From NCBI GenBank assembly GCA_964035545.1, contig CAXIUT010000064.1:6611-70610 (forward strand): a stretch of DNA of 64,000 bases, given 5' to 3'. Of this stretch, positions 5,634-64,000 are shown one piece after another; position 1 is the first letter of the stretch; each line of letters starts with the position of its first letter. The translations under genes were made by a program, and so were the position numbers. Source of the DNA: Bugula neritina (lineage: Eukaryota > Animalia > Bryozoa). Below the pieces are notes generated by a model. The model saw only the letters and a program-made list of their open reading frames with translations. It was not told the origin of the DNA and ran no database searches.

Positions 5634-5669
<36 letters not shown>

Positions 5670-13889: not shown

Positions 13890-14420
13890 TTTACTGTTAG
13901 GGGAAAAAATTTACCAAATTTTTTTTTATAATTTTTTTTTGTATATTATAAGTAATAAAACATTAAGTTATAACATATTTTTACTTGTAAAAAAAAAAAT
14001 TATTTAGTAGAATTTTTATAATTTTTTTTTATCTATTATTTATTATAAGCGATAAAATATTAAGTTATAATGTATTTTTTACTTTTCTGTTTATTATAGG
14101 TAATAAAACATTAAGTTATAACGTATTTTTACTTGTAAAAAAAAATTATTTAATAGAAATTTTTATAATTTTTTCTATCTATTATTTATTATAAGTAATA
14201 AAATATTAAGTTATAATATGTTTTTACTAGTAAAAATAAAAAAAAAAAAGTTCTAACCAAGTTTTTTTTTATAATTTTTTTTTTTATTTATTATAAGTAT
14301 ACTAATATTAAGTAGAAGTGTATTTTACTGTTAAAAAAAAAATTGGTAGAATTTTTTTATAAATTATAAGAGATATAGTATCAAGTAGAGATATAGTTTT
14401 TTTTTTATAAAATTAGTTTT
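13890..14420. repeat. Repeat family A, locus 2
   Basis: Several degenerate units of taataaaacattaagttataacatatttttacttgtaaaaaaa. Confidence 0.85.
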
Positions 14421-25747: not shown

Positions 25748-26186
25748 TTTTTACTAATTTTTTTTTTTTATAAGTATTCAAGTAAAAATTAACATTTAAT
25801 TTCATTTTAATATATTTTATAATATTTCTTATTAACTGAAAATAATAATTTTTTAATAGAACTATAGGCTTATTACATTTTACTATAGATGCAACTCTTA
25901 CATAAGAGCCAACACCTGATCCCATTCTAGAATTTTTTGATTTCATAGTTAATAAAAAATTAGGTCTAACCATTAATCAATATTTTTTAGTTAAATATGT
26001 AATATCTTTTTTAAAATACTTTTTTCTAAATAATTTTTTTAGTACTCTAAAATATACTAATTCAAATCTTATTTGATTAATCGTATATACTCCATAATTA
26101 AATTTTCATTTTTTATATATTTTAGTTTTATAGAATTTACGTCTTTTAAATATATGATTTTTTTTTATTAAGTAGTTTAAATTCAA
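25740..26186 (-). CDS. rpl16: Ribosomal protein uL16m
   Basis: PNFLLTMKSKNSRMGSGVG; TTG start inferred. Confidence 0.92.
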
Positions 26187-26189
26187 CTT

Positions 26190-26830
26190 TTACAACTTTA
26201 AACTGATTTTTGCATTTATACCGATATCAATTTTATTACTCATTTTATGCATATTAATACATAAATACATATGTATATACGTATATAAATTGTATACATA
26301 AATATAAACTTATTAAATTTTTACTAAAAAAAATACTTTATTAAAATTAAATATTATAAATTAAATAAAATTTTTATTAAAATAATTTTTTTATATTATT
26401 AAGTATAGATATATTATTAATACAATTATATTTTAAAAAATTTGAAATTTACAAATAACATAAGAATAATAACTATAAATACTGTTATATATATATATAT
26501 GGGTGTGGGTTTATTGAATTTCAATTTAATCCTATAAATAAAGAAAAAATATAATAATAATAATAATAAATAAAAATTTTATGAATGCATATAAATAGAT
26601 ATTATTAATAAAATTAAACATAATAGTGAATAATATACATATAAATATATGTTAATATTACTAAATTTAATATAAAATTTTTGTTTATATTATAACTTAA
26701 AATAAATAACATAATTAACAATATTAAAAATAATTTAACTACATTTATATCTAAAAGCTATAATTTAAGAAAATTATATTTATATATATATACGTGTAAC
26801 TATATTTTATTAGTAATATTAGCGGTAGTA
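26190..26830 (-). pseudogene. Decayed duplicate of the yejR 3' half
   Basis: Colinear with ~27120-27780, with stops and TA insertions. Confidence 0.8.
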
Positions 26831-26879
26831 GAAAAAACAGTAGTAAGTATTTCGTCAAATATATAAACACAAAAAACTA

Positions 26880-27118
26880 TATTTCTAATTATTAAAATAT
26901 TTTATTTATATATTCAGTATCTTTTTTTTTAATATTTTTTTTTAATAACCTTTTTAATGATCTAAAATATCCCAATTCAAATATCATTTGATTAACTATA
27001 CATATAAATGTATATATTAATAATAATTAAATTTTTATTTTGTATAAATTTTAGTTTTATAAAATTTACGATTTCTAGATATATAATTCTATTTTACTAA
27101 ATAATTTAAATTTAACTT
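26880..27118 (-). pseudogene. Decayed duplicate of the rpl16 5' half
   Basis: Colinear with ~25980-26190; start codon lost and TA-rich insertion present. Confidence 0.8.
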
Positions 27119-27203
27119 TTATAAATTTAAATTTATTTTTACACTCATAATCATATCAACTTCATTACTCATCTCACCATTATTAGTATATATACATGTG
27201 TAT

Positions 27204-28316
27204 TTAAACATACATATTTATTAAATTTTTACTAAAGAATATTTTATTAAAATTAAGCATTATAAAATGATTAAATTTTTTATTAAAATAATTTTTTACA
27301 TTATTAAGTATAAATATATTATTAGCATAATTATATTTTAAGAAATTATAATTAAATTTTAAAAAGTTATAATTATAACTTAAAAAATAATAATTAAATT
27401 TTATAAAAAATTGAAGTTTACAGATAATATAAAAAATAATAACTACAAATATTATTATATGTGTAAAGAGAAAATTTATTAAATTTCAATTCAACATTAT
27501 AAACAAAAAAAAAAATATAATAATAAATAAAGATTTTATAAATACATATAAATAAACATTATTAATAAAATTAAATATAATAGCGAATACATATATATAC
27601 AAATATATATTAATATTACTGAATTTAATATTAAAATTTTTGTTTATACTATAACTTAAAATAAATAACATAGTTAATAATATTAAAAATAATTTAACTA
27701 CATTTATATCTAAAAGTTGTGAATTGAAAAAGTTATGTTTCGTATAAATATAACTATATCTTATTAATAGTAGTAAGTAGATTAGTAGACTAATATTTCA
27801 TAATTTATATAAATATAAATAATTATTTTTATGAATATTACATATATATACGTATGATAAAAATATAATAACATATTCTATAGAATCATTAGATCAATAC
27901 ACACCTCAATTAAAAACATATAAAGCTCATAAACTACCTAGTATAAATGAAATAACTGTAATACTTAAAAGAAAATTAAAACTTAATTTATTTATACTAT
28001 TATAATACTTAAGTATTAAGGTATTTATATAAAAAATTATAGATAAGTAAAATAAATAAGGATGTAATTTGAAAAAACCACAAAAAAATGAATTAATAAA
28101 AAAAAAAAAAACTAATTTATATTTAAATAAAAAAATAAAAATAAATAAATTATTATAAAAGTAGTATATAATATAAAAAAAAAAAATTACGATACTATAA
28201 TTAATGAAAATATCATTTAAACTTATTAAAAATTGTAAAAAAAATGTTAATTTTTTAAATAGTAATATATAATTAAATTTTATAAAATTAATAATATTAA
28301 AAATCAAATTATACAA
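27204..28316 (-). CDS. yejR: Heme lyase CcmF-like protein
   Basis: LHPYLFY and LGSLWALYVFNWGVYWSNDSIE (CcmF Trp-rich motif). Confidence 0.9.
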
Positions 28317-28788
28317 TTTTATTGGTTTTAAACAAATTTCTAAGTACTCTTCTTTTTATATTTTTTTTTTTTTTTTTAATATAATTTCAGCTATTAGTAC
28401 TTATAAAATAATGAAACTCAGGTTTTAATAGATAGAAAAATTTTTTTATTAATAAGTAATTTTTAAAATTAAAATTTTTACAATAAAATATGAAAACAGA
28501 ATTTATTTTTTTTTTTAACTTTTTGTTTAGTATGTTTATTATAGAACTAAAATTTTTTATAGATTTTTTAAAATATTTTAATTTTTTAATTTTTTTTCCT
28601 AATAACTGTCCTGAACTTAAAATATAAAATCTATTTTTATAAAAAAATTTAAAATATAATAGTTTTTTATGCATAAAAACAGATAAATAAAACAGTTTAT
28701 ATTTACTATAATTTATTGATGAAAAATTTGTATTATAATAAATATTTATTATTTTTTTAAAATTTATTTGCTCTTTTTTTATATTCAT
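28309..28788 (-). CDS. ymf61: Ymf61 / uS11m
   Basis: Basic; ILSSGQL resembles the S11 motif; directly upstream of yejR as in Tetrahymena. Confidence 0.6.
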
Positions 28789-41352: not shown

Positions 41353-42711
41353 TTATCAATTTATTAAATTATATTTACTATTATTTAATATTCATGAATT
41401 TCTCACAAAAATAAATAATAAAAACCCAAATATATAAAAATAAGAGATTAATAGGGCAAAGTTACCACCTATTTTATTATAAAATCTTCCATATGGTAAA
41501 AATGATAATGTATATAATATAGCAATAAAAAATAATGAATAACTTATTCATCACTGTAAAGATAGCTCGTAATTTACAGTATTTCAACTGCTATAAACTT
41601 TTACATGTACTTTTTTTATCCTATTACTTATAAGCGTTACAGGTATAAAATATTTTAAAAATTTACTTTTTAAAATAATATTTATTAATTGATAATAAAA
41701 TAAATATATAGTATTAAAATATTTTAAATTTTCTAATTCAGAACTACCAAATAATGATACTTGAAAATATATTATTAAAAAAAAAAATACTAAACCAAAA
41801 ATTCCTACATAGTGATATGGACAAGCTATTAATCAAGCCATATAAGGTCTAAAATATCAATGAGGTGCTACTCCATAAAATCTAACATCAGTTACTAAAC
41901 CAATATCTCCTCACATAAAAATTTCATAACTCAATGCTTCAGGTTCAGAATACAATAATTCTCCTGCACAACCTAAAACAATTAAAAAGTTTAATAGTAG
42001 TCTTAATTCGTTATTTAAAGTTTCATCTCATCAGTTTAGTTGTTGTTTTATACCACTATATAAACCTTTACTTTTTCAGTCATAATGCATATCTACTCCA
42101 TGCATCAAACCTAAATAAAGTAAAAAAAATGCTATACAGTAATGTAAATACATTAATCTAATTATAGTATCTGTATTTAATAATTTATCGGTAAAAGGTC
42201 ATCAATATGGTTTACCGAAAAATAGGAAAAAAGTGTGTAACGCATTAGCTGCAATTACTAAAGTAATTTCACTTAAATGAGTTGTACATAAAACTAAACC
42301 TGCAAATACTGTAAGTTGGATAATTAAAAAGGCAAAAACACCGGTTTTTCAAGAATACTCCTGTTCTAAATCAGAAATACCTAAATATATTTTTCTAAAT
42401 AAATGAAAAAAGCTACTTATAATAATTAAATCAACTCCTCTTTCATGTAATCAGAAAAAATCATCTATATAATTATTTTCACTATCTTCTTCTTCTCTAC
42501 TATAAGCTATTAGCATACAGTCATTAGTTAAACTAAATGATAACATTATACCACTAATACACTGATTAGCTATTATTACAAAAGTAATAAAACCTCAAAG
42601 TGCTCATACATTATGATATGCAGTTTTTAAATTTAAAAAATATTTTAAAATATATTCCATTTTACTGTTAATAGAAACAGATTCAAACTTTTTTAAAACA
42701 GTTTCGTACAA
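41353..42711 (-). CDS. cob: Apocytochrome b
   Basis: WLHERGVD, VAPHWYFRPY and LPYGRF; start TTG 42711 or ATG 42660. Confidence 0.96.
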
Positions 42712-42712
42712 T

Positions 42713-42779
42713 TAGTATGGTAAGGAATCGAACCTTACGAGGTATGGGCTATGAACCCTACGGTAAACCATTACATACT
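42713..42779 (-). tRNA. trnM: tRNA-Met(CAU) with truncated D arm
   Basis: ggg-TTCATAG-ccc anticodon arm, GTAAGG-TTCGATT-CCTTAC T arm, AGTATG/CATACT acceptor. Confidence 0.8.
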
Positions 42780-42807
42780 TTAAAGATATGATATATAATT
42801 ATCTATA

Positions 42808-44742
42808 TTATTTAAATAATATCTTTTTATATTTAAACTTATTTAGTAGTATACTTTTATTATTTATAAAATTTTTATGTCTATACATTCTAGGTAAACC
42901 TTTAGTTTGTCATCATAACATAAAATGCTCAAAAGGTAATGCGCAAACTCTTATAGGCATATGGTGATGAAATCTTCCGCAAATTTCAGCACATTGTCCA
43001 TAATAAAAACCTATATTATCAATATAGAGAGAATGGTGTGTAGATCTGCCAGGTACACAGTCTATTTTTAATCCTAATCCTGGTACAAATCATGAATGAA
43101 CTACATCATAAGAATTCGTTATTAGCGTAATATTTATATGTGCAGGTAAAACTAATGTTCTTTTTGTTCTTAAAAGTCTTCGAGCTAGTGTAACAGGGAT
43201 TAACTCATTTTTATATTTATTATTTTTCATTATAGTATATATATTAAAATTATTTTGATAATTATTATCTAAAAAATTATAAATATTTTTGTACGTTATA
43301 TTACTATATTTAGGATTCTGTGGGAAACAAAAAGACTTCAATTTTCTATATTTTTTTTGTCTAAATCCTCAAAATTGTTCTACTTGTAAAACTTTTTCCG
43401 TAATATTAGTATTTTTTATACTATAATTTAAAAATATATTCTTATTTAAATTTTTATTATTTTTTAAAATATATAAATTATTTTTATTTAAAATACCCTT
43501 AATAATTCTTATAGGATATTTTACATTTTTTAATCTTAAATTTTCAGCACTTTCGTGTACTGTATCTAATCTATCTAGTTCAAAAAAATTATTTTTATTA
43601 TTTTTAATTGATTTACTTAACAAATTAAAATTGTTATTATAACCTTTTATTTTAGAATTATTTAATAAAATAATATTAGGTTTTTTTGCTAATTTTGATT
43701 GTTTATCAAGATTTTTTAATATAAATTGATAAACTTTAGAAAAATATTGATCTTTTAATGTATATTTTTTAAAATTATTACTAATATTAAATTGTAATTT
43801 TTTTTTTAAATTTATTATAAAATTATTATTAATAAATTTATTTTTTTTAATAGAAGGATTATTTTTAAATCTATAGGTTAAGTAATTTTTAGATGCTTTT
43901 GTTTTTTTTGACGAAAGCTTAAATTTTCGTAATTGTTCAGTTTTTTCTTTATAAGAATTATAATATTTTTCTAAAAAAGTTAGATTTAAATCTTTTTTAT
44001 TAAAAATATAAGACTTACAGAATTGAGATTTTTTTGAGTTATTTCATTTCTTTATATTATTTAAATATAAAGACGAATGTTTTTTAAAAAAATTTACATT
44101 ATTATCAACTTTAAAGTCTTTATAAATATTAACATTTGATATTAAACTAAATTTTTTAAAATTACTATTATTAAGAGAGAATCGTTGTAAATTTACTTTA
44201 TGAAGTTGTTTAAATTCATATTCATAAATAATTGACATTAAGCTATTTGTAAAAAAATAATTAGTTGTACTTTGAAGATTACTTTTCATTCAATTATTAT
44301 TTCCTACATTAATATAAATGTTATTAAGTTTATAGTTAATATCGGAACTATACTTATAGGTTCAGTATCACTGTTTACCTTGTATTCTGACAGTAAACAA
44401 AGAAGCTTCATTTTGTCATTCAATCATACGTAGTATGAAATTTGAATTTATCAGAATATTACCGCATCAACTTAGCGGTATTAAAGCTACCAAAAAATCA
44501 CCCCATTTCCCATGACTGCGCAATGACGTATTCAAAACTACGTTCAGCTTTTCAGCTCTATTATTATAACATCTTAATATTACAAAAAAATATAAAGATC
44601 ATAAAACTGCAAATCAAAATCATCATCAATATTGTCACTGAGATAACTGTACATGTACGTCATTCTTATGTGAAGCAAAACCGATGTTGAAATTTCTATG
44701 CATAGAATAGTCTACGTATAAAGTAGATCACAAGTACTTCAT
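42808..44742 (-). CDS. cox2: Cytochrome c oxidase subunit 2 (644 aa, large Asn/Lys-rich insertion)
   Basis: QWQYWWWFWF, GKQWYW, DVVHSW and GQCAEICGRFHHHMP; single frame checked across the insertion. Confidence 0.96.
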
Positions 44743-44779
44743 TAAGATTTGACTCTTTGTACTAAATACATGAAGTTTA

Positions 44780-47440
44780 TAAAAATTAATCAGCTAAATT
44801 AAGTAAAATTTATTATACTTCTATACAATTATTACTAATCTTATAAAGTATTTATTTTTATTAAAAATATTCTGTTTTTTACTTATTAAAAAAAAAAATT
44901 ACTTAAATTCCCCATATTGGTTATATAATTAGGCGTAACTGATCAACATGCAATTTTTATACAATTGATTATAATTGGCCTATCGTCTCCGGTCCTCTCG
45001 TACTGAGATAATTATAATTTTTTTTTTTATTACGTACAGTAGATAGGGACCAAACTGTCTCACAACGTTTTGAACCCAGCTCACGTACCATTTTATTTGA
45101 CGAACAGTCAAACCCTTGGCAGCGTATGCTCCGCCAGGATATGATGAGCCGACATCGAGGTGCCAAACGATTTCTTCAATAGGAGCTCTCAAAAATCATT
45201 AGCCTGTTATCCCTAGCGTACCTTTTATTCGTTGATCGATTTTTTTAGCAATATAAAAAATCGGTTCAATATGACAGAGTTACCTCCTTATATTACTAGT
45301 TAGTAATATAATCAGACTTATTTTGATCATTCATCTTTTTCTATATAATATATAGACTAAATCTTGTATTCACCTCCGTTACTTTTTAGGAGGTTGCCGC
45401 CCCAGCTAAACTGTCTTTCTAACAAAAAATAATACCATACAATTATTTTTAACTAACATATATAAAAAGTAGTTTTCCATTATTAAAAAATTTACTACAT
45501 ATCTATATTTTATATACATTTAATTAATTATTAGATAACAGTAAAGGTGCATAGGGTCTCTCCGTCTAGCTGTACATTAACGCATCTTCACGTTTAATTC
45601 AATTTCATAAAGTTAGTATTAGAGACAGTAGGGCAGTCGTTACACCATTCGTGCAGGACGGAACTTACCCGTCAAGGGATTTTGCTACCTTAGGACCGTT
45701 AGGATTACGGCCGCCGTTTATTGGGGCTTATACATAAACAGGATGTTTATGTTTTTTACCTTGCAACACTGGGCAGGTGTCAGACTTTATACTTCATAAC
45801 TATACTTAGCAAAGTCTTATGTTTTTGTTAAACAGTCGCTACCCTCATTTATTATAACTATTTAGTTCTTTTTCTCCCGAAGTTACAAAGATAATTTGCA
45901 GAGTTCCTTTAATACTATTATCTTTTATACCTTAGCTTACTCAGCTTATTAACTTGTGTTAGTATTAGTACAGTTTTTATTTTACAATTTTTTCTATATA
46001 TTAAATTTATATGAATATATATATATATATATATACTTTAATATTTAATATAGTTTTTATAAAATTCATCACTTTTTTTTTTTTAAAAAAGTTTAGATAC
46101 TGTATTACATGTAATAAATTTATTTTAATTACATAACCCTATAATATTAGGTATATATGTTTATACATATAATTATTACTCATATTAGCATAATTAATCT
46201 TTATATTTCCAATTTTTTTTACAAAAAATCTTCTACAATATAAAAGACACTCCACTACCTAATGTGTAATTTCAATAAATAGTTTTTTAACATTAATTTT
46301 AGAAAATTAAATATATGTTTATTAATTATATACAAAAAAAATATTTGATCTTTTACGATTTCTTAAAAGAATGGCTGATTCTAAGCCTATCTCTATATTT
46401 AATATTTAGTAATTTTCTTAATATTAACTATTTTTTATTATTTTAATTTACACTCTGGGCTGTTTCCCTCTCGACATTTAATCTTTGCACTAAATGTCTG
46501 TTTAAATATAAATATAGATACTAATTTATAAATTAATTTTCATTATCTCATTACCAAATATCTATATAATATTCACTTTACTTAAATAAATTTCGTGGAG
46601 AACCAGCTATAACTAAGCTTGATAAGCCTTTCACCCCTAATAACAAATCATCTCAAAATTTTGCAACATTTACGAGTTCAGCCTAATGCTTGTTCATTAT
46701 TAGATCGCTTAGTTTCGGGTCAAATACTATAAACTAAATTATTTTCACTATGCTTACGCTTGCTTATAGTATTTACTTGCTAATCCATTATACAAAAGGT
46801 ACAATAAAACATTCGCTTTATTTGATTTAATACATTAAAATTCAGTATTACTCATATTAATATGTTATTTCATCTATTTTTCGCAAAATATAATCTATAA
46901 AACTTAAGTTTTTTAGCAGTTAATTTACTAAATTTTTATAGTTATATAGATTAATAAGTAAACTTAATAGGTATTAAAAATTTTAAAAAATTTAAAATAC
47001 ACTAAAATATTAATATTACTTACTTAAATTTAATAGATTTAATTTTACTTAAATATATATATACAAAATTTAAATAAGTATATGATATTGTTTAATATAT
47101 TAATACTATATACTTTTAAATCAATCTTAAAGATCTACTTTTTTACAAGACTTTCACTTTCTATGGTTTATTTTTTTCAAAATAATTATTAAAATTTTTT
47201 ATTTTCTGCTAACTATTTTCGATCATCTCTACAATAGTTCTCAATTGAATTTTATAATTATATACTAAAATATTTTTCTTCTACAATATAATCCTATTAT
47301 TATTCATTAAAGACCAGGTCGTAATAATGATATATTCTTTATAAGAAAAATCTTTTACTCCATAGTTTTTAAATTATTCCTAATAATATAACTTAAGTTT
47401 TAGACATCCTTCTAATGTAATTTTTTTAGCTAATTAATTC
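44780..47440 (-). rRNA. rnl: Large-subunit rRNA (ends approximate)
   Basis: Sarcin-ricin loop AGTACGAGAGGAC, peptidyl-transferase GGCACCTCGATGTCGGCT, GAGCTGGGTTCAAAACG and GTACCTTTTGTATAATGG. Confidence 0.95.
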
Positions 47441-47466
47441 AATAAAAATATAAACTATATAAAAAA

Positions 47467-49542
47467 TTTAATTTACCTACAGATTCATCTACCAGTACCT
47501 TGTGTCAACTTAATTCAAATAACCTTTAAACTAATCAAACTTTTTTTTTTTTTTTATCATAGTGACACTTAAAAATCTATTTATTTCATTGCAAGAAAAA
47601 AAAAAAGGTAAGCGTCTTTATTAATCTAAAAACGCTCCGAATGTGATGGGCGGTGTGTGCAAAACTATTGTATTAATTCGCCATAACATCGTTATTTATG
47701 GTTACTAACGATTTCAACTTCTTCACTTCTGTTTCAGAAATGATTCTGCACTTTGATAATTTTTTAAACTGTCTCTAAATTACTTTTTTGAATTTTTTTG
47801 TTTTTATCATTGTAATACGTGTGTAGCCCAATATACTTAGATCGTGAGGACTTGACTTCAATTTACTTTAAAAATACACTTTCATAGAGTTTGTATATCA
47901 ATAACTAGTAAGATTACGTTCGTTATATAAACTTAATTATACACGTCAAAGCACGAACTGACGACAGCCATGCAGTACTATTTAAATATTAATTTAATTT
48001 TAATTTATTTAATTTATTATTATTACATATTGGTAAGATTTTACGTGGATTATCGCATTAAACCACATATTCCACCGTTCGATATAATTCCCGCCAATTC
48101 TGTTAGCTTTGAGATTTGCAACTGTACTCACCAGGTAGATTATTTTAACGTAAATTTTAATAATAATCAACATTCAGGGTAGAGATTACTAGGGTCTCTA
48201 ATCCTATTCATTTCCTCTACTTTCGTGTTTTAGCGTCAGATAAAACCGGTAAAATTCATTAGAATAATGGCAAAATTATTTAAATAATAGCGTATTTTAT
48301 CACTCTTTAAATAAGTTTTTTTACTTTTGTTTAATCTCAAAAATATTTTATATTACACATAATTTCAATTTATAAATCTAGTAGTATGTATAATTTTATT
48401 TAGCCCACACACCTTTTACACCCAATCATGCTGAATAACGCTTGTTGCTCAGGTCTTACCGCGGCTGCTGGCACCTGTATTTGCCACAACTTCTTTTTAT
48501 GTTTAATATCATAATTTTTACATTTGGATAAACTTTACAACTTCTATAGTTTTCGTCGTTTCCGTTAAATTGATAGGTCATACTTTCGTACATTGCCTAA
48601 TATTCTTCACTGCTGCCGTATGGTGGGGTTGTTTTCATACCCCATGTGGATGATTCTTCTCTCAAATCAACTAAAGATTATAGGCATATTAAAACAGCTA
48701 ATTTTAGTTTTAATATATACCTAATCTTACCCCATAAAACGTAAACCTAAAAATTTTTTAAATTATTAAGTATTTAAATATATATATACAATTATATATA
48801 TATATATATATACAATTAATAACTTAATTAGCATTAGTTTATTATTTTTTTATATAAATAGTTTTTAGAAATTTTATAAAAAAAAATTTTATTTAAAATC
48901 ACTTTAAAAATTAAAATTTTATAAAAATAATTTTACCTAAAATTACTTTAAAAAATTAAAATTTTATAAACTTTATTATATCTAATAAATAAAGTAAAAT
49001 AATAAAAAAATTTTTTATAATAATTAACAAAAATAAATACAAAAAATTTAATAACATTTTCCTAAGACAACAATTAAATAAAAATATTGGTTTATATTTT
49101 ATTTATTTGCCTCCATAAAGTGGCATACGTATATTGGTATCGTTGTTAATACCGTACCAATATACAGATTAATTCAAAATTAATTAATAATTTATTTTTC
49201 AAAAAAATTAATTAATACAATTAAAATACTATTGTTAATGTAGTAAATTTAATATTAAGAATAAATCTTTTGTCTGTATACCCCCTTAACATAGTTAAAT
49301 TTACTAATACTTATAACACGAATATACACACAACTTTCATGTGTACATTTTCTACGTTAAAAATTTTTTAAATCTATTAAAAGTATTTAACTTTCAGAAT
49401 CCTATTTTACTAAGCTTACTCACCACGACGCTATTTTATTTATTTTTTAAATTTTTAATTTAAAAAATAATCCCATTCAACTTGCATGTGTTATACATTT
49501 AACTAGCGTTCACTCTAAGCCAAGATCACACTCATAAATTTA
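47467..49542 (-). rRNA. rns: Small-subunit rRNA, probably split, with an AT-rich spacer or expansion at ~48750-49390
   Basis: 5' GAGTGTGATCTTGGCTTAG, GTGCCAGCAGCCGCGGTAA, GCACACACCGCCC and 3' ACAAGGTA...GATGAATCTG. Confidence 0.95.
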
Positions 49543-49619
49543 ATTACTAACCTTGATTCACAATATGTATATATATATATATATATATAAATTTTAATTA
49601 TTAAAACTTAACTAAAGAA

Positions 49620-50700
49620 AAAAAATAAAGATAGATTTTTAATTTTTTTTTTTTGTTTATTATAAATAAAGTAATATCAAATAGAGATATGTTTTATTAA
49701 ATAAAAAAATTACTTAGTAGAAATTTTTTTATAAACTTTTTTTATCTATTATAAATATAGCAACATTAAACAAAAATATGTTTTTTTTTTACTGGTAAAA
49801 AAAAAATTTTTATTTATTATAAGTAAGGCAATATTTAGTGGATATATTTTAGTGATTAAAAAATACTTGGTAGAATTTTTTTTATCTATTATAAGTAATA
49901 AAATATTAAGTTACAATATATTTTTACTTATAAAAAAAAAAATATTTAATAGAAATTTTTTTTATTTTCTGTTTATTATAAGTAATAATACATTAAGTTA
50001 TAACATATTTTTACTTGTAAAAAAAAAAATATTTAATAGAAATTGTTATAATTTTTTTTTATTTATTATTTATTATAGGTAATAAAACATTAAATTATAA
50101 CATATTTTTATTTGTAAAAAAAAAAACTATTTAATAGAAATTTTTTTTATTTTCTGTTTATTATAAGTAATAAAACATTAAGTTATAACATATTTTTACT
50201 TGTAAAAAAAAAATATTTAATAGAAATTTTTATAATTTTTTTTTTTATTTATTATTTATTATAAATAATAAAACATTAAATTATAACATATTTTTATTTG
50301 TAAAAAAAAAAAAACTATTTAATAGAAATTTTTTTTACTTTTCTGTTTATTATAAGTAATAATCCGTTAAGTTATAACATATTTTTACTTGTAAAAAAAA
50401 AAATATTTAATAGAAATTTTTATAATTTTTTTTTATTTATTATTTATTATAGGTAATAAAACATTAAATTATAACATATTTTTATTTGTAAAAAAAAAAA
50501 CTATTTAATAGAAATTTTTTTTACTTTTCTGTTTATTATAAGTAATAAACCGTTAAGTTATAACATATTTTTACTTGTAAAAAAAAAATTATTTAGTAAA
50601 AATTTTTATAATTTTTTTTATCTATTATTAATAAAGTAACGCTGAATAAATATATTTTTTAGTGATCAAGAATAGTTTAAATAGAATTTTTTGAAAACTT
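49620..50700. repeat. Repeat family A, locus 3 (~95-105-bp units, about 7 good plus degenerate flanking copies)
   Basis: Same unit as 1140-1690 and 13890-14420, in the same orientation. Confidence 0.9.
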
Positions 50701-52279
50701 TTTATAACTATCTTATCCTGTATATACGAAAAAAATAATAAGATAGAATATATATATGTATATATTACTTATATTATATTAGTATAAAATTTTTAAGTTA
50801 CTTATCTTATATTATATTAGTATAAAATTTTTAAGTTATTTATTTTTTTTAAAAATATTATAAAATACAATGATAAAACATATAAATATTATATAATTTC
50901 TAATTCTATAAAATTTTACATAACTTTTTTTTTTGATATAAATAGTATAAAAATAATAATAATAAAAATTCTACAGGTAAATTATTTTAAATTTTTTTTA
51001 TATTCTCCCTTTTTTTTTTCGTATAAGTTGCAAGATTAAAAAAAAAAAAATATTTATGAAAAAATAATTTTTTAAATTTTTCATATAAACTATTTGCTGC
51101 AGAAATTGTAAAGTAATAAAAACGTAGAAAGATTTTTATAAAGAAAAAAAAAAAGCATTCATTAGAAATAAAATACTTCTTTTATTATAAATATTGGGTA
51201 AGAAGAATAACAAATTAAAAAGTAAATATGAATTATCTTCAAAAATTGATTTTTTTCTCTTTTTTTTTTTATTAACTATGTAAAAAGAATCATATAAAGA
51301 TTATATTTCTAATACAAAGTATTAATTAATTAAAATTTTTTGTATAATAAATTATTAAAAATTTTATTAACTTATCATATTAAAGTAAGTATATATATAT
51401 ATATACTAGTACAAGTACTAACTGCACATTTAAAAAAAAAAAATAACAATTTATTATTAATAGTCAAAAAATAATATGTAATTTCATAAATTAATAATAA
51501 TTATCATAATACTCAGTTAAATAATAATTATTATTATTAATAACATAATTAATTAACACACTAATAAATAAAATAATATAGAAAATTTTAAACAATATAC
51601 CATATTTTATTTACCAACAACTAAAAAACTATAAAGTTTTTAATGCAAATTATTTAAAAAATATGATAAAAAAAGTATAATTTTCTTTAATAAACAATTA
51701 ATTTTAATTTTGTATGCACATATATATATCTTATAATTAATTTTACTCTTCAACAATAACATAAAACACCCTTCCAATCATCACTGATCATTGATATTAA
51801 TAAAACATATTACAAATTGATGATCAATTGATGATAATTATAATTAAATAATTAATCATATCAATATGTATGTATTCATACAACTATAATTTAAAAAAAA
51901 AAAATGTGATTAGTAATTTTTTCCTTCTAACCAATAAATTAGAATACATTATATTTCAAATACCATTATATTACAAATTACATTTAAACTTTAAAATGTT
52001 TTTAATAAAATAAAATAAAAAATATTTTTGTTATAAATTACTAATAACTATACAATTAAATAATCTAATATAATTAATTGTTATTTATACTTAATATAAA
52101 TAAATAAATACAAATTAATTTTTTTTTTTATAAGTATAAATATACTATAAATTTTTAATATACAATGAAGAATTGTAATTTATTACTATTCATTTATAGA
52201 TATATTATGATTATATTAACTTTATCAAATTTTACTATATTACAACATACATATATATTGCGAATATGTCAATTCCTTT

Positions 52280-52930
52280 TATTATATATTAAATTATATA
52301 TATATTGTAATATACAAATATAAATATTATAATTACATATATATATATTTTATAATTATATATTTATATAATGTAATATAATATATAAATATATATATAT
52401 AAAAAAATTTATTATTTACATAATATAATATATAAATATTTATTTATATAATATATAAATTTATTATTTATATATATATGTATATATATATATATATATT
52501 AAAAATATAAAATTATATATTTATATAATATATATAATATAATAAATAAATATATATTTATATAATACATAAATTTATTATTTATGTATATATATATATA
52601 TATTTATATTTATATAATATATATAATATAATAAATAAATATATATTTATATAATATATAAATTTATTATTTATATAATATATATAATATATATAATATA
52701 ATATATATATAGATATATATGTATAATTAAATATAAATTTATATATTTATAATATGTATATATATATATATATATAAATTTATATATTTATATGATATAT
52801 ATATATATTTATTATATAGTTATATGATATATATAATGTAATATATATATATATATAAATATAAATGATATATACATATATAATTATAAAATATATAAAC
52901 ATATACGTATATGTATAATGTATATAAATA
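52280..52930. repeat. Nearly pure TA-rich low-complexity tract; candidate control region
   Basis: (TA)n runs and short direct repeats such as atatatataatataataaataaatatata; almost no G or C. Confidence 0.8.
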
Positions 52931-53639
52931 AAAAATTGAAGTATAAATTCGTATAAAATAATATTAATTTGGTCTTATTTTTAATAATTAAATATTAAAT
53001 TTTATATTAATATATATGGGTATATGTATAAGTTTTACAATTGTATAAGTGTATAAAGTATATATTAAATTTTTTTTAAGTATATTATTAAGATATGTTG
53101 ATTGTAAGAGTATTAGATATATTAAATATAGAAAAATTAAAAATTTGATAATTGTCGTAATTTATTAATTTATATGGGTTATATGTTTTTACGTAGGTAT
53201 AAGTCTGTTAGTATGTATATACATATTTATATTAGGCATTATAATGGTATATGTGTTTAGTATATATATAAAAGTGTATTTTTATAAGATTGGTTATGTA
53301 ATTATATCGATGCATATTTGATAAACTAATTGTATTTAGAAAAGGATAAAAAGCGTAATATATGTATATATATATATATAATTGGTTAATTGATGTGGTT
53401 ATAAGTAATTTATTTAGTAGTAAAGTGATTGATTGATAATTATAGATATAAGTATGGGTATATATTTACGTACACAGATAAATTTTTTTATGAATAAATA
53501 TATTTGAAATAATGGTGATATGGCTATTCTTAATTGTAATTTTTTCATATTTTATAATTAAAGTTGAAGTTATGGTATTAATATAAATATATTTATTTGA
53601 GCGTTAACTATACTAATTTTAAATATTTTTTTTTAATTA

Positions 53640-56600
53640 TTATTATAAATTTTTTTATATAAAATTTATTTAAATACTTTATTTATCAAATTTTAAAGAT
53701 TTTTTATAATAAAATAAAGCTGTAAATTTCTTACACAAAACTTACTTAATTACCTTATTTATCAAATTTTAAATATTTTTTATAATAAATTAAAGTTATA
53801 AATTTCTTACATAAAATCTACTTGAATAACTTATCTATCAAATTTTAAATATTTTTATAATAAATTAAAGTTATAAATTTCTTACATAAAACCTACTTGA
53901 ATAACTTATCTATCAAATTTTAAATACCTTTTTATAATAAATTAAAGTTATAAATTTCTTACATAAAACCTATTTGAATAACTTATCTATCAAATTTTAA
54001 ATATTTTTTATAATAAATTAAAGCTGTAAATTTCTTACATAAAACCTACTTGAATAACTTATCTATCAAATTTTAAATATTTTTATAATAAATTAAAGTT
54101 ATAAATTTCTTACATAAAACCTACTTAAATAACTTATCTATCAAATTTTAAATATTTTTTATAATAAATTAAAGCTGTAAATTTCTTACATAAAACCTAC
54201 TTGAATAACTTATCTATCAAATTTTAAATATTTTTATAATAAATTAAAGTTATAAATTTCTTATATAAAACCTACTTAATTACCTTATCTATCAAATTTT
54301 AAATACCTTTTTATAATAAATTAAAGTTATAAATTTCTTATATAAAACCTACTTAATTACCTTATCTATCAAATTTTAAATACCTTTTTATAATAAATTA
54401 AAGTTATAAATTTCTTACATAAAACCTACTTAAATAACTTATCTATCAAATTTTAAATACCTTTTTATAATAAATTAAAGCTGTAAATTTCTTACATAAA
54501 ACCTACTTGAATAATTTATTTATATAAGATTTGTATAAGAAATTTATAACTTTAATTTATTATATAAAACCTACTTAATTACCTTATCTATCAAATTTTA
54601 AATACCTTTTTATAATAAATTAAAGCTGTAAATTTCTTACATAAAACCTACTTGAATAATTTATTTATATAAGATTTGTATAAGAAATTTATAACTTTAA
54701 TTTATTATAAAAAGGTATTTAAAATTTGATAGATAAGTTATTTAAGTAGGTTTTATGTAAGAAATTTATAACTTTAATTTATTATAAAAAATATTTAAAA
54801 TTTGATAGATAAGGTAATTAAGTAGGTTTTATATAAGAAATTTATAACTTTAATTTATTATAAAAAGGTATTTAAAATTTGATAGATAAGTTATTTAAGT
54901 AAGTTTTATGTAAGAAATTTATAACTTTAATTTATTATAAAAAGGTATTTAAAATTTGATAGATAAGGTAATTAAGTAGGTTTTATGTAAGAAATTTATA
55001 ACTTTAATTTATTATAAAAATATTTAAAATTTGATAGATAAGTTATTTAAGTAAATTTCTTATATAAAACCTACTTAATTACCTTATCTATCAAATTTTA
55101 AATATTTTTATAATAAATTAAAGTTATAAATTTCTTATATAAAACCTACTTGAATAACTTATCTATCAAATTTTAAATACCTTTTTATAATAAATTAAAG
55201 TTATAAATTTCTTATATAAAACCTACTTAATTACCTTATCTATCAAATTTTAAATACCTTTTTATAATAAATTAAAGTTATAAATTTCTTACATAAAACC
55301 TATTTGAATAACTTATCTATCAAATTTTAAATACCTTTTTATAATAAATTAAAGCTGTAAATTTCTTACATAAAACCTACTTAATTACCTTATCTATCAA
55401 ATTTTAAATACCTTTTTATAATAAATTAAAGTTATAAATTTCTTATATAAAACCTACTTAATTACCTTATCTATCAAATTTTAAATATTTTTTATAATAA
55501 ATTAAAGTTATAAATTTCTTACATAAAACCTATTTGAATAACTTATCTATCAAATTTTAATACCTTTTTATAATAAATTAAAGCTGTAAATTTCTTACAT
55601 AAAACCTACTTAATTACCTTATCTATCAAATTTTAAATACCTTTTTATAATAAATTAAAGTTATAAATTTCTTACATAAAACCTACTTAAATAACTTATC
55701 TATCAAATTTTAAATACCTTTTTATAATAAATTAAAGTTATAAATTTCTTATACAAATCTTATATAAATAAATTATTCAAGTAGGTTTTATGTAAGAAAT
55801 TTATAACTTTAATTTATTATAAAAAATATTTAAAATTTGATAGATAAGGTAATTAAGTAGGTTTTATATAAGAAATTTATAACTTTAATTTATTATAAAA
55901 AGGTATTTAAAATTTGATAGATAAGTTATTTAAGTAAGTTTTATGTAAGAAATTTATAACTTTAATTTATTATAAAAAGTTATTATTGTTATTTAAAATT
56001 TGATAGATAAGGTAATTAAGTAGGTTTTATGTAAGAAATTTATAACTTTAATTTATTATAAAAATATTTAAAATTTGATAGATAAGTTATTTAAGTAAAT
56101 TTCTTATATAAAACCTACTTAATTACCTTATCTATCAAATTTTAAATATTTTTATAATAAATTAAAGTTATAAATTTCTTATATAAAACCTACTTAAATA
56201 ACTTATCTATCAAATTTTAAATATTTTTTATAATAAATTAAAGCTGTAAATTTCTTACATAAAACCTACTTAATTACCTTATCTATCAAATTTTAAATAC
56301 CTTTTTATAATAAATTAAAGTTATAAATTTCTTATATAAAACCTACTTAATTACCTTATCTATCAAATTTTAAATATTTTTTATAATAAATTAAAGCTGT
56401 AAATTTCTTACATAAAACCTACTTGAATAATTTATTTATATAAGATTTGTATAAGAAATTTATAACTTTAATTTATTATAAAAAGGTATTTAAAATTTGA
56501 TAGATAAGTTATTTAAGTAGGTTTTATGTAAGAAATTTATAACTTTAATTTATTATAAAAAATATTTAAAATTTGATAGATAAGGTAATTAAGTAGGTTT

Positions 56601-59600
56601 TATATAAGAAATTTATAACTTTAATTTATTATAAAAAGGTATTTAAAATTTGATAGATAAGGTAATTAAGTAGGTTTTATGTAAGAAATTTACAGCTTTA
56701 ATTTATTATAAAAAATATTTAAAATTTGATAGATAAGGTAATTAAGTAGGTTTTATATAAGAAATTTATAACTTTAATTTATTATAAAAAGGTATTTAAA
56801 ATTTGATAGATAAGTTATTTAAGTAAGTTTTATGTAAGAAATTTATAACTTTAATTTATTATAAAAAGGTATTTAAAATTTGATAGATAAGGTAATTAAG
56901 TAGGTTTTATGTAAGAAATTTATAACTTTAATTTATTATAAAAATATTTAAAATTTGATAGATAAGTTATTTAAGTAAATTTCTTATATAAAACCTACTT
57001 AATTACCTTATCTATCAAATTTTAAATATTTTTATAATAAATTAAAGTTATAAATTTCTTATATAAAACCTACTTAAATAACTTATCTATCAAATTTTAA
57101 ATATTTTTTATAATAAATTAAAGCTGTAAATTTCTTACATAAAACCTACTTAATTACCTTATCTATCAAATTTTAAATACCTTTTTATAATAAATTAAAG
57201 TTATAAATTTCTTATATAAAACCTACTTAATTACCTTATCTATCAAATTTTAAATATTTTTTATAATAAATTAAAGCTGTAAATTTCTTACATAAAACCT
57301 ACTTAATTACCTTATCTATCAAATTTTAAATACCTTTTTATAATAAATTAAAGTTATAAATTTCTTATATAAAACCTACTTAATTACCTTATCTATCAAA
57401 TTTTAAATACCTTTTTATAATAAATTAAAGTTATAAATTTCTTATATAAAACCTACTTAATTACCTTATCTATCAAATTTTAAATATTTTTTATAATAAA
57501 TTAAAGTTATAAATTTCTTACATAAAACCTACTTAAATAACTTATCTATCAAATTTTAAATACCTTTTTATAATAAATTAAAGTTATAAATTTCTTATAC
57601 AAATCTTATATAAATAAATTATTCAAGTAGGTTTTATGTAAGAAATTTACAGCTTTAATTTATTATAAAAAATATTTAAAATTTGATAGATAAGGTAATT
57701 AAGTAGGTTTTATATAAGAAATTTATAACTTTAATTTATTATAAAAAGGTATTTAAAATTTGATAGATAAGGTAATTAAGTAGGTTTTATGTAAGAAATT
57801 TACAGCTTTAATTTATTATAAAAAATATTTAAAATTTGATAGATAAGTTATTTAAGTAGGTTTTATATAAGAAATTTATAACTTTAATTTATTATAAAAA
57901 TATTTAAAATTTGATAGATAAGGTAATTAAGTAGGTTTTATATAAGAAATTTACTTAAATAACTTATCTATCAAATTTTAAATATTTTTATAATAAATTA
58001 AAGTTATAAATTTCTTACATAAAACCTACTTAATTACCTTATCTATCAAATTTTAAATACCTTTTTATAATAAATTAAAGTTATAAATTTCTTACATAAA
58101 ACTTACTTAAATAACTTATCTATCAAATTTTAAATACCTTTTTATAATAAATTAAAGTTATAAATTTCTTATATAAAACCTACTTAATTACCTTATCTAT
58201 CAAATTTTAAATATTTTTTATAATAAATTAAAGTTATAAATTTCTTATACAAATCTTATATAAATAAATTATTCAAGTAGGTTTTATGTAAGAAATTTAC
58301 AACTTTAATTTATTATAAAAAATATTTAAAATTTGATAGATAAGGTAATTAAGTAGGTTTTATATAAGAAATTTATAACTTTAATTTATTATAAAAAGGT
58401 ATTTAAAATTTGATAGATAAGTTATTTAAGTAAGTTTTATGTAAGAAATTTATAACTTTAATTTATTATAAAAAGGTATTTAAAATTTGATAGATAAGGT
58501 AATTAAGTAGGTTTTATGTAAGAAATTTATAACTTTAATTTATTATAAAAATATTTAAAATTTGATAGATAAGTTATTTAAGTAAATTTCTTATATAAAA
58601 CCTACTTAATTACCTTATCTATCAAATTTTAAATATTTTTATAATAAATTAAAGTTATAAATTTCTTATATAAAACCTACTTAAATAACTTATCTATCAA
58701 ATTTTAAATATTTTTTATAATAAATTAAAGCTGTAAATTTCTTACATAAAACCTACTTAATTACCTTATCTATCAAATTTTAAATACCTTTTTATAATAA
58801 ATTAAAGTTATAAATTTCTTATATAAAACCTACTTAATTACCTTATCTATCAAATTTTAAATATTTTTTATAATAAATTAAAGCTGTAAATTTCTTACAT
58901 AAAACCTACTTGAATAATTTATTTATATAAGATTTGTATAAGAAATTTATAACTTTAATTTATTATAAAAAGGTATTTAAAATTTGATAGATAAGTTATT
59001 TAAGTAGGTTTTATGTAAGAAATTTATAACTTTAATTTATTATAAAAAATATTTAAAATTTGATAGATAAGGTAATTAAGTAGGTTTTATATAAGAAATT
59101 TATAACTTTAATTTATTATAAAAAGGTATTTAAAATTTGATAGATAAGGTAATTAAGTAGGTTTTATGTAAGAAATTTACAGCTTTAATTTATTATAAAA
59201 AATATTTAAAATTTGATAGATAAGGTAATTAAGTAGGTTTTATATAAGAAATTTATAACTTTAATTTATTATAAAAAGGTATTTAAAATTTGATAGATAA
59301 GTTATTTAAGTAGGTTTTATGTAAGAAATTTACAGCTTTAATTTATTATAAAAAATATTTAAAATTTGATAGATAAGGTAATTAAGTAGGTTTTATATAA
59401 GAAATTTATAACTTTAATTTATTATAAAAAGGTATTTAAAATTTGATAGATAAGGTAATTAAGTAGGTTTTATGTAAGAAATTTACAGCTTTAATTTATT
59501 ATAAAAAATATTTAAAATTTGATAGATAAGTTATTTAAGTAGGTTTTATATAAGAAATTTATAACTTTAATTTATTATAAAAATATTTAAAATTTGATAG

Positions 59601-62600
59601 ATAAGGTAATTAAGTAGGTTTTATATAAGAAATTTACTTAAATAACTTATCTATCAAATTTTAAATATTTTTATAATAAATTAAAGTTATAAATTTCTTA
59701 CATAAAACCTACTTAATTACCTTATCTATCAAATTTTAAATACCTTTTTATAATAAATTAAAGTTATAAATTTCTTACATAAAACTTACTTAAATAACTT
59801 ATCTATCAAATTTTAAATACCTTTTTATAATAAATTAAAGTTATAAATTTCTTATATAAAACCTACTTAATTACCTTATCTATCAAATTTTAAATATTTT
59901 TTATAATAAATTAAAGCTGTAAATTTCTTACATAAAACCTACTTAATTACCTTATCTATCAAATTTTAAATACCTTTTTATAATAAATTAAAGTTATAAA
60001 TTTCTTATATAAAACCTACTTAATTACCTTATCTATCAAATTTTAAATATTTTTTTATAATAAATTAAAGTTATAAATTTCTTACATAAAACCTACTTAA
60101 ATAACTTATCTATCAAATTTTAAATACCTTTTTATAATAAATTAAAGTTATAAATTTCTTATACAAATCTTATATAAATAAATTATTCAAGTAGGTTTTA
60201 TGTAAGAAATTTATAACTTTAATTTATTATAAAAAGGTATTTAAAATTTGATAGATAAGGTAATTAAGTAGGTTTTATGTAAGAAATTTATAACTTTAAT
60301 TTATTATAAAAATATTTAAAATTTGATAGATAAGTTATTTAAGTAAATTTCTTATATAAAACCTACTTAATTACCTTATCTATCAAATTTTAAATATTTT
60401 TATAATAAATTAAAGTTATAAATTTCTTATATAAAACCTACTTAAATAACTTATCTATCAAATTTAAATATTTTTTATAATAAATTAAAGCTGTAAATTT
60501 CTTACATAAAACCTACTTAATTACCTTATCTATCAAATTTTAAATACCTTTTTATAATAAATTAAAGTTATAAATTTCTTATATAAAACCTACTTAATTA
60601 CCTTATCTATCAAATTTTAAATATTTTTTATAATAAATTAAAGTTATAAATTTCTTACATAAAACCTACTTAAATAACTTATCTATCAAATTTTAAATAC
60701 CTTTTTATAATAAATTAAAGTTATAAATTTCTTATACAAATCTTATATAAATAAATTATTCAAGTAGGTTTTATGTAAGAAATTTACAGCTTTAATTTAT
60801 TATAAAAAATATTTAAAATTTGATAGATAAGGTAATTAAGTAGGTTTTATATAAGAAATTTATAACTTTAATTTATTATAAAAAGGTATTTAAAATTTGA
60901 TAGATAAGGTAATTAAGTAGGTTTTATGTAAGAAATTTACAGCTTTAATTTATTATAAAAAATATTTAAAATTTGATAGATAAGTTATTTAAGTAGGTTT
61001 TATATAAGAAATTTATAACTTTAATTTATTATAAAAATATTTAAAATTTGATAGATAAGGTAATTAAGTAGGTTTTATATAAGAAATTTACTTAAATAAC
61101 TTATCTATCAAATTTTAAATATTTTTATAATAAATTAAAGTTATAAATTTCTTACATAAAACCTACTTAATTACCTTATCTATCAAATTTTAAATACCTT
61201 TTTATAATAAATTAAAGCTGTAAATTTCTTACATAAAACCTACTTAATTACCTTATCTATCAAATTTTAAATACCTTTTTATAATAAATTAAAGTTATAA
61301 ATTTCTTATATAAAACCTACTTAATTACCTTATCTATCAAATTTTAAATATTTTTTATAATAAATTAAAGCTGTAAATTTCTTACATAAAACCTACTTGA
61401 ATAATTTATTTATATAAGATTTGTATAAGAAATTTATAACTTTAATTTATTATAAAAAGGTATTTAAAATTTGATAGATAAGTTATTTAAGTAGGTTTTA
61501 TGTAAGAAATTTATAACTTTAATTTATTATAAAAAATATTTAAAATTTGATAGATAAGGTAATTAAGTAGGTTTTATATAAGAAATTTATAACTTTAATT
61601 TATTATAAAAAGGTATTTAAAATTTGATAGATAAGGTAATTAAGTAGGTTTTATGTAAGAAATTTACAGCTTTAATTTATTATAAAAAATATTTAAAATT
61701 TGATAGATAAGTTATTTAAGTAGGTTTTATATAAGAAATTTATAACTTTAATTTATTATAAAAATATTTAAAATTTGATAGATAAGGTAATTAAGTAGGT
61801 TTTATATAAGAAATTTACTTAAATAACTTATCTATCAAATTTTAAATATTTTTATAATAAATTAAAGTTATAAATTTCTTACATAAAACCTACTTAATTA
61901 CCTTATCTATCAAATTTTAAATACCTTTTTATAATAAATTAAAGTTATAAATTTCTTACATAAAACCTACTTGAATAATTTATTTATATAAGATTTGTAT
62001 AAGAAATTTATAACTTTAATTTATTATAAAAAGGTATTTAAAATTTGATAGATAAGTTATTTAAGTAGGTTTTATGTAAGAAATTTATAACTTTAATTTA
62101 TTATAAAAAATATTTAAAATTTGATAGATAAGGTAATTAAGTAGGTTTTATATAAGAAATTTATAACTTTAATTTATTATAAAAAGGTATTTAAAATTTG
62201 ATAGATAAGGTAATTAAGTAGGTTTTATGTAAGAAATTTACAGCTTTAATTTATTATAAAAAATATTTAAAATTTGATAGATAAGGTAATTAAGTAGGTT
62301 TTATATAAGAAATTTATAACTTTAATTTATTATAAAAAGGTATTTAAAATTTGATAGATAAGTTATTTAAGTAAGTTTTATGTAAGAAATTTATAACTTT
62401 AATTTATTATAAAAAGGTATTTAAAATTTGATAGATAAGGTAATTAAGTAGGTTTTATGTAAGAAATTTATAACTTTAATTTATTATAAAAATATTTAAA
62501 ATTTGATAGATAAGTTATTTAAGTAAATTTCTTATATAAAACCTACTTAATTACCTTATCTATCAAATTTTAAATATTTTTATAATAAATTAAAGTTATA

Positions 62601-64000
62601 AATTTCTTATATAAAACCTACTTAAATAACTTATCTATCAAATTTTAAATATTTTTTATAATAAATTAAAGCTGTAAATTTCTTACATAAAACCTACTTA
62701 ATTACCTTATCTATCAAATTTTAAATACCTTTTTATAATAAATTAAAGTTATAAATTTCTTATATAAAACCTACTTAATTACCTTATCTATCAAATTTTA
62801 AATATTTTTTATAATAAATTAAAGCTGTAAATTTCTTACATAAAACCTACTTAAATAACTTATCTATCAAATTTTAAATACCTTTTTATAATAAATTAAA
62901 GTTATAAATTTCTTATATAAAACCTACTTAATTACCTTATCTATCAAATTTTAAATATTTTTTATAATAAATTAAAGCTGTAAATTTCTTACATAAAACC
63001 TACTTAATTACCTTATCTATCAAATTTTAAATACCTTTTTATAATAAATTAAAGTTATAAATTTCTTATATAAAACCTACTTAATTACCTTATCTATCAA
63101 ATTTTAAATATTTTTTATAATAAATTAAAGTTATAAATTTCTTACATAAAACCTACTTAAATAACTTATCTATCAAATTTTAAATACCTTTTTATAATAA
63201 ATTAAAGTTATAAATTTCTTATACAAATCTTATATAAATAAATTATTCAAGTAGGTTTTATGTAAGAAATTTACAGCTTTAATTTATTATAAAAAATATT
63301 TAAAATTTGATAGATAAGGTAATTAAGTAGGTTTTATATAAGAAATTTATAACTTTAATTTATTATAAAAAGGTATTTAAAATTTGATAGATAAGGTAAT
63401 TAAGTAGGTTTTATGTAAGAAATTTACAGCTTTAATTTATTATAAAAAATATTTAAAATTTGATAGATAAGTTATTTAAGTAGGTTTTATATAAGAAATT
63501 TATAACTTTAATTTATTATAAAAATATTTAAAATTTGATAGATAAGGTAATTAAGTAGGTTTTATATAAGAAATTTACTTAAATAACTTATCTATCAAAT
63601 TTTAAATATTTTTATAATAAATTAAAGTTATAAATTTCTTACATAAAACCTACTTAATTACCTTATCTATCAAATTTTAAATACCTTTTTATAATAAATT
63701 AAAGTTATAAATTTCTTACATAAAACTTACTTAAATAACTTATCTATCAAATTTTAAATACCTTTTTATAATAAATTAAAGTTATAAATTTCTTATATAA
63801 AACCTACTTAATTACCTTATCTATCAAATTTTAAATATTTTTTATAATAAATTAAAGTTGTAAATTTCTTACATAAAACCTACTTGAATAATTTATTTAT
63901 ATAAGATTTGTATAAGAAATTTATAACTTTAATTTATTATAAAAAATATTTAAAATTTGATAGATAAGGTAATTAAGTAGGTTTTATATAAGAAATTTAT
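53640..64000. repeat. Telomere-like array of 75-77-bp units in alternating inverted blocks
   Basis: Unit ttatctatcaaattttaaata(cc)tttttataataaattaaag(t/c)t(a/g)taaatttctta(c/t)ataaaacctactt(aattacc/aaataac/gaataac); degenerate at the left edge and runs off the window end. Confidence 0.95.

Follow-up and report, generated by a model that had tools for sequence, protein, structure and literature searches.

The window analysed here is a stretch of 64,000 nucleotides from contig CAXIUT010000064.1 of the Bugula neritina assembly GCA_964035545.1, and it is nearly the entire mitochondrial genome of a ciliate. At its right end lies an array of 76-bp repeat units that switch orientation many times, which is the subject of this analysis. 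When 42 open reading frames (ORFs) were scanned under genetic code 4, Pfam matches were obtained for nad1, nad3, nad4, nad5, nad7, nad9, nad10, cox1, cox2, cob, atp9, rpl2, rpl14, rpl16, and rps12, and Rfam matches in the window comprised rnl, rns, and five tRNAs. The gene set, compiled from Pfam, Rfam, and ORFs, occupies 202–48677 on the minus strand and includes rns, rnl, cox2, cob, trnE, nad5, trnW, cox1, nad1, rpl14, nad4, nad9, rpl16, nad3, atp9, trnF, rps12, nad10, rpl2, nad7, trnY, and others. The top PDB matches for cob and cox1 are 7tgh and 7w5z, which we take to be Tetrahymena structures, and environmental homologues of the cob protein show 70–87% identity. Every identified gene and rRNA lies on the minus strand and points away from the array, which is located upstream of all genes. 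An earlier note on this DNA had interpreted the array as a mitochondrial end-maintenance system, and its setting at an end of ciliate mitochondrial DNA (mtDNA) is supported by gene content and strand.

The terminal array (53615–64000) extends past the end of the window and is built from units of 75–77 bp in mixed orientation, with 126 unit anchors (53.7–64 kb) and 25 orientation switches. It opens with a proximal block of about 12 direct forward repeats (53615–54500), of which the first are degenerate; this block carries older unit variants, here called w and v. An older mosaic zone follows (54500–55990), in which three copies of one junction (J1), one copy of a second (J2), and a third junction (J3) are embedded in copy phrases of at most 175 bp. 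All seven w and v variants (4 w, 3 v) lie below 56 kb. The proximal 2.3 kb contain 517 distinct 25-mers, compared to 375 in the distal 8 kb, and the copy phrases lengthen outward to 1.9 kb. Old variants inward and long phrases outward form the gradient that would be expected if the end turned over from its tip.

Junctions were counted by exact match of 30–33-nt junction sequences. J1, at which forward units give way to reverse units, occurs seven times in forward form (54510, 54655, 56426, 58913, 61400, 61974, and 63887) and six times as the reverse complement (55748, 57594, 58244, 60158, 60731, and 63218). J2 leads from reverse back to forward units and is found in six forward copies (55042, 56086, 56966, 58573, 60334, and 62514) and five reverse-complement copies (57931, 59614, 61068, 61795, and 63555). 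Chance is excluded for this census because identical junctions of 30–33 nt recur 13 times for J1 and 11 times for J2. The remaining switch is J3, a return from reverse to forward near 54560 with a single copy (54541–54580), 46 bp past the first J1. In the type copy of J1 (54638–54680, tip at 54659–54660) the arms differ at seven positions, 6, 8, 9, 12, 14, 18, and 20 from the tip, and the core is identical in all 13 copies. The type copy of J2 (55041–55083, axis 55062/55063) has six arm mismatches, at 3, 4, 8, 9, 17, and 20 from the tip, and 11 identical cores. The junction counts given in the earlier note, including the unique return, were exact, and its description of J1 as an imperfect palindrome with seven mismatches near the tip was borne out. 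The inverting array that it reported from 54480 onward stands, while its start has to be moved to about 53615, where the forward units begin. The array is thus confirmed as a real feature of the sequence, with more internal order than the earlier note had described.

Next to trnY (1797–1925, minus strand) lie two diverged relics of the 76-bp unit, inverted relative to the proximal array. They are also present on unique contigs of three public short-read runs (X8, X9, and X10; see below). The second arm of J1 has five private letters, of which three occur in the first relic, four in the second, and none in ordinary array units. To judge from these letters, J1 most likely arose long ago when two repeat lineages were joined tail to tail, one of the array type and one of the relic type, and its “mismatches” would be their divergence. 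Two other origins were rejected. J1 is not a fresh chimera with a relic unit, being identical to neither relic, and its second arm is not a high-copy telomere of the opposite end, as only the unique relic locus covers this arm in X8 and X9. J2 and J3 are microhomology joins over four (GTAA) and five (TTATA) bases. Predicted folding gave −19.8/−22.7 kcal/mol for an 82-nt J2 strand and a weak −7.1/−8.7 kcal/mol for an 81-nt J1 strand. Beyond the relics, 1.8 kb of other sequence reach to the edge of the window. The relics are possibly a former left telomere, now buried at least 1.8 kb from the end.

Units vary at four sites, which makes the junction arms distinguishable. J2 always lies between the same two unlike arm haplotypes, and in all 11 copies the stretch identical to the modal arm measures at least 117 bp on one side and 89 bp on the other. 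For 20 of the 24 J1 and J2 copies the arms are not mirror copies of each other; they show 10–59 differences at positions 22–300, and their longest in-register mirror block is at most 151 nt. A tip-only inversion between unchanged arms fits one copy, J1 at 58267, together with its mirror at 63891. Most junction copies thus do not mark a turn, and the isomers are mostly whole-cassette mirror images. The hairpin-like asymmetry that had been proposed is present at the tips, but it is not a property of the tips only, as arm asymmetry mostly reaches far beyond them.

The earlier note had also read the flip and flop counts as a sign of hairpin ends. These counts are near 1:1 because each mirror, as described below, reverses every junction that it encloses. 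Furthermore, a toy model that started arrays with a single copy each of J1 and J2 and extended them solely by homologous template switching (2000 arrays, arbitrary parameters) produced both isomers of both junctions in 1652 arrays. Flip/flop counts alone therefore do not show hairpin ends. The same simulations, and the inversion of whole cassettes as duplex units, would suit a satellite in which two founder inversions spread without hairpins, by flip-flop isomerisation and unequal exchange alone; the available part of a report on Candida mtDNA (PMC3105423) describes isomers of this flip-flop type that arise from inverted repeats. Such a process does not predict the three successive, tip-centred, in-register mirrors of this array, and the toy model, at its arbitrary settings, gave a median of 12 junctions (5–95%: 3–22) compared to the 24 observed. 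We consider recombination without a hairpin step very improbable.

The outer ~7 kb of the array (56986–64000) can be derived from a seed of ~1.3 kb by three nested in-register fold-backs, centred on J2 at 56986, J1 at 58267, and J2 at 61079. Apart from the cores, this derivation requires no more than three insertions, a patch of 2 bases, inversion of one J1 tip, and some small indels. Mirror 1 (55793–58247) has an asymmetric core of ±171 bp; 57158–58247 copies 55793–56815 with a 77-bp insertion, and a 9-bp slippage insertion at ~55980 in the mosaic zone is missing from the mirror copy. It stops at J1 58267, where the tip is inverted relative to the source J1 at 55771 and the arms are unchanged up to the tip. 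Mirror 2 (55990–61197) has a core of ±32 bp and a hybrid allele at 58300, and its 2268 matches up to 61197 are broken only by insertions of 76 and 574 bp and the 2-base patch. Mirror 3 (58160–64000) has a core of ±119 bp and is cut by the end of the window; its arm of 2803 bp has 0 substitutions and differs only by two homopolymer indels of one base each. Hybrid alleles mark crossover points, and the turns lie at ~171, 33, and 119–138 bp from the respective tips. Mirrors 1 and 2 stop inside the array at ~55790–55990 and mirror 3 is cut by the window end; the arms of a dimer of the Paramecium type would run into the genome. Arms of 1200 nt gave 1107–1188 matches at the three centres and 672–993 at nine other junctions, a comparison for which the centres were chosen post hoc. 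A direct copy of 55990–56845, as if made by synthesis through a cap at J1 55771, would account equally well for part of mirror 2, and both readings include a turn at a junction. The outermost mirror could represent one molecule read through a true cap at J2, because its only differences look like read errors.

Mirror axes that all fall on tips, and the inverted tip between unchanged arms at J1 58267, would also be produced by a dedicated hairpin-end system. In that case, both junctions would be defined ends with incomplete pairing, nicked or resolved at set positions in the manner of poxviruses or of the Paramecium initiation end, and the array would be a concatemer of such ends that had not been resolved. 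Its location upstream of one-way genes, which resembles Paramecium according to the accessible part of PMC3318907, and the outermost mirror, which has only unmirrored homopolymer indels and could be a molecule read through a J2 cap, agree with this idea. The unequal turn distances, the presence of a third junction, the weak folding of the J1 strand, and the arm differences within 300 bp at 20 of 24 copies speak against it. Moreover, tip orientation is tied to arm haplotype over at least 89–117 bp in every J2 copy, unlike the flip/flop loops treated in the sections available of PMC7909422 and PMC8956199. A poxvirus-type system with fixed nicks is not supported, and we regard a dedicated hairpin-end system of any kind as improbable. 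The two fixed turnaround sites of the earlier note are likewise not upheld. Its fold-back idea was partly right: fold-back is recorded in the nested mirrors on the J2, J1, and J2 tips, but the turn points were not fixed and most junction copies are passive.

An assembly artefact, by a path through a tangled repeat graph or by mis-joined reads, is conceivable in that the distal array probably rests on one or a few reads, as suggested by homopolymer indels, at ~60050 and ~60460, that have no mirror counterpart. The mirrors nevertheless reproduce hybrid alleles and insertions faithfully, core asymmetry spans 64–340 bp, and J1 was recovered in a separate short-read contig set. With these observations, an artefact of this type is scarcely credible.

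The explanation we favour, with confidence evenly balanced, is natural elongation of the end in the cell by hairpin fold-back at two old inversion joins, combined with homologous template switching between units. The starting material, a single-core J1 joining two diverged repeat lineages and a J2 formed over microhomology, is present in the window. Any such join would leave hundreds of bases of ~95%-matched inverted arms. A 3′ single-stranded end past the join, or a cruciform cut at its base, could then fold in register into a hairpin cap whose distance to the tip varies. Copying from the cap would duplicate the array in mirror image and reverse the enclosed junctions. Between turns, the array was reshuffled, as seen from hybrid units and the 76-, 77-, and 574-bp insertions; template switching or unequal recombination may be responsible, and switches between units would trim and rearrange the array ahead of the next turn. 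In yeast, fold-back inversions via single-stranded DNA hairpins are followed by homologous rearrangement, according to the part of PMC7467729 available. The three mirrors and the hybrid units are directly visible; a hairpin intermediate is inferred, and the array may have a role in end maintenance, by protection or elongation of the end. A broader statement is advanced tentatively, at somewhat less than even confidence: in this ciliate lineage, one mtDNA end may be capped and extended by repeated hairpin fold-back at two joins inherited within a 76-bp satellite. Such a mechanism would be a hybrid of t-hairpin and t-array that approximately doubles the array per turn, needs no telomerase or t-circle, and logs its capping events in one molecule.

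Comparison with other samples was based on public short-read contigs of five runs from two studies, each with 62–88% of the words of 44500–54400; runs X1–X6 and X12, with at most 13% of these words, were left out. Neither for the window nor for the runs do the records give the library type. Bridging was judged by a 31-letter rule, and missing cover of J1 or J2 in contigs is not equivalent to absence, as low-depth side paths get dropped. The 76-bp unit is present in all five runs. J1 is bridged in one run of four, X10, by a 79-nt contig with 75 letters on the stretch without a difference. Its start and length are exactly as predicted for a J1-specific path, and 30 letters lie to the left of the first J1-specific base, one below the rule. 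J2 is bridged in none of the four short-read runs holding the unit, in contigs from which rare paths may drop out. Contigs of X7, X8, and X9 contain units and no junction in the stretches compared, and these samples may fit plain direct arrays. Summed unit depth relative to the unique relic locus is ~77x in X8 and ~20x in X10, although contig depth is a poor measure of copy number. In metagenome contigs, no exact match to a 38-nt unit pattern was obtained. The repeat, and probably J1, are natural parts of this mtDNA, and the many-junction state is either specific to a molecule or strain or made by amplification.

Several points weigh against natural fold-back. The first is the bridging counts of J1 and J2, which also count, weakly, given that contigs lose rare paths, against the constitutive system envisaged at the outset. 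At the window's ratio, J1 would be expected in X8 at ~980x and J2 at ~830x, and w and v variants at 915x and 707x were retained there; a single J1 or J2 copy per genome could have been lost from the contigs. Presence of many junctions is therefore probably not a general state among near-identical populations, or else results from amplification. In addition, X10 may be the source sample of the window. The absence of new substitutions from the mirrors is compatible both with synthesis in the tube and with cellular synthesis in the very recent past. The chance of three in-register turns was estimated at 0.003–0.18, a rough value set by the assumed number of donor units. Finally, the hairpin end is proposed from sequence.

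Much of this evidence would also suit amplification with phi29 polymerase. The array and a low-copy J1, perhaps a hairpin end or dimer centre, would then be natural, and the concatemer would stem from displaced 3′ ends snapping back on inverted arms, with J2 and J3 as chimeric joins of the reaction. J2 and J3 are indeed short-microhomology joins, the mirrors lack new substitutions, and the runs without a bridged J2 include X10, where J1 was retained, and X11, with unit variants at 8–13x retained there. Multiple displacement amplification (MDA) gave palindromic, often multi-inversion molecules in 26–38% of tardigrade mitochondrial long reads (PMC13265396), and inverted chimeras predominate in MDA products (bioRxiv 10.64898/2026.06.11.730069), as stated in the portions of both sources at hand. 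Against this, J2 at 55062 already lies in the old mosaic zone, beside a run of w and v units that is not a straight copy of earlier sequence (phrases of 41–128 bp), and just three junction types make up 25 switches. For the same two joins to recur, snap-back would have to be guided by homology, and J1 holds old diverged letters, which sets the window apart from the multi-inversion MDA chimeras that it otherwise resembles. The contig sets comprise 290–620 Mb with the unique locus at 3–111x in X8–X10. This resembles a minority component of larger samples more than it does a single cell after amplification. Overall, we judge origin by phi29 amplification rather unlikely, though the main alternative to elongation in the cell.

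Other features of the window lie outside the array. The genes are separated from it by ~650 bp of near-pure A/T (52283–52930; 6% GC over 52–53 kb) with a quasi-palindromic TA tract, a candidate start region for replication or transcription. A second, A+T-rich repeat family of ~86–90 bp forms three arrays (1147–1685, 13699–14365, and 49618–50630), each upstream, on the minus strand, of a gene block; these are candidate promoter or origin elements. An ORF family without Pfam match (3462–11106 and 202–801; ~160–300 aa from stop to stop) has a common FPGYP-like motif ahead of a hydrophobic stretch. Four of its members lie in a ~1.25-kb tandem duplication with 87–93% identity, and the family resembles subterminal expansions of Oxytricha mtDNA. 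Positions 9264–10026 are an 83%-identical duplicate of 48679–49546, the stretch immediately upstream of the Rfam rns match, and are perhaps a copy of a 5′ rns piece. A ~0.9-kb tandem duplication (25965–27840, 72% identity) overlaps a heme-maturation-like ORF (27204–28355) and may be merely two similar A+T-rich gene halves. A tRNA at 11084–11156, to which ARAGORN assigned no anticodon, overlaps the start of an uncharacterised ORF and is possibly trnH.

A cob-alignment scan yielded 80 loci, nearly all 41–57% identical and two short ones 62–66%. The window has the order rns-rnl-cox2-cob (41353–48677), compared to cob-nad5-cox2-rns in most long related loci, and this order may point to a ciliate lineage that has escaped sampling and is frequent in environmental data. 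None of the 39 cob loci of at least 6 kb has the gene order of the window or a match to the unit, and they are uninformative on the ends of this lineage.

Knowledge of how ciliate mitochondrial ends are completed rests on old work on Paramecium, with a cross-linked end, and Tetrahymena, with direct repeats. Pritchard and Cummings (1981) reportedly described the cross-linked initiation end of Paramecium mtDNA and a dimer intermediate, and this dimer is said to have one junction. The window differs in that junctions of three kinds occur 25 times within 10 kb of 76-bp units and that the turn distance varies, and its end is known from sequence. Features common to both are a linear ciliate mtDNA, one main direction of transcription with the end upstream of the genes, A+T-rich end repeats, and a strand-linking turn with an asymmetric centre (PMC3318907 and PMC3105423, in part). 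Tetrahymena and spirotrichs likewise have a tandem, non-telomerase repeat at the mtDNA end, with units of 31–53 bp and 13–36 bp, respectively, and the same family inverted near the other end, where the window has just two diverged relics (excerpts of PMC7961746 and PMC3318907). Their arrays are described as tandem, and internal inversion is not mentioned in the accessible text of these papers or of PMC6505448 and PMC11871222; in contrast, the unit of the window is longer and its 25 switches depart from direct repeats only. The literature searched, a body of text that excludes most subscription journals, yielded no account of a ciliate with a mitochondrial end array of alternating orientation.

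Poxviruses, African swine fever virus (ASFV), and Kaumoebavirus share with the window imperfect A+T-rich palindromes, in both complementary forms, beside ~70-bp repeats. Poxviruses and Kaumoebavirus have one ~100-nt loop between identical terminal repeats and a resolvase that acts near a conserved resolution site (available sections of PMC8956199 and PMC7909422, for both statements). In the window both complementary forms occur, whereas the arms differ over hundreds of bases, the isomers are mostly mirrored whole cassettes, and a fixed resolution or nick position was not found.

Yeast petite mtDNA contains flip-flop “amphimers” with two asymmetric junctions in both orientations. Petites and yeast fold-backs are defective genomes or damage products, whereas the array of the window is confined to the non-coding end of a complete-looking mtDNA. 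For yeast mitochondrial t-hairpins and t-arrays, palindromic junctions were proposed to give hairpin ends that are elongated by recombination, with flip-flop isomers; the part of PMC3105423 available treats single large palindromes or direct arrays with t-circles and does not mention an alternating array. Nuclear fold-back inversions and breakage-fusion-bridge palindromes of yeast also involve hairpin priming of single-stranded DNA at pre-existing inverted repeats, followed by homologous secondary rearrangement (PMC7467729, in part). By analogy, the array would work like a yeast fold-back inversion on a mitochondrial t-array, and would stand between the cross-linked end of Paramecium and the direct arrays of Tetrahymena and spirotrichs.

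If the many-junction state is a product of amplification, it is a clear warning that recurrent “flip/flop” junctions may be non-biological when repeat ends are assembled from long reads. If it is natural, the array joins both modes of ciliate mitochondrial end completion and logs three successive capping events with crossover points at base level, and two junction-specific probes would make hairpin-primed end elongation directly testable.

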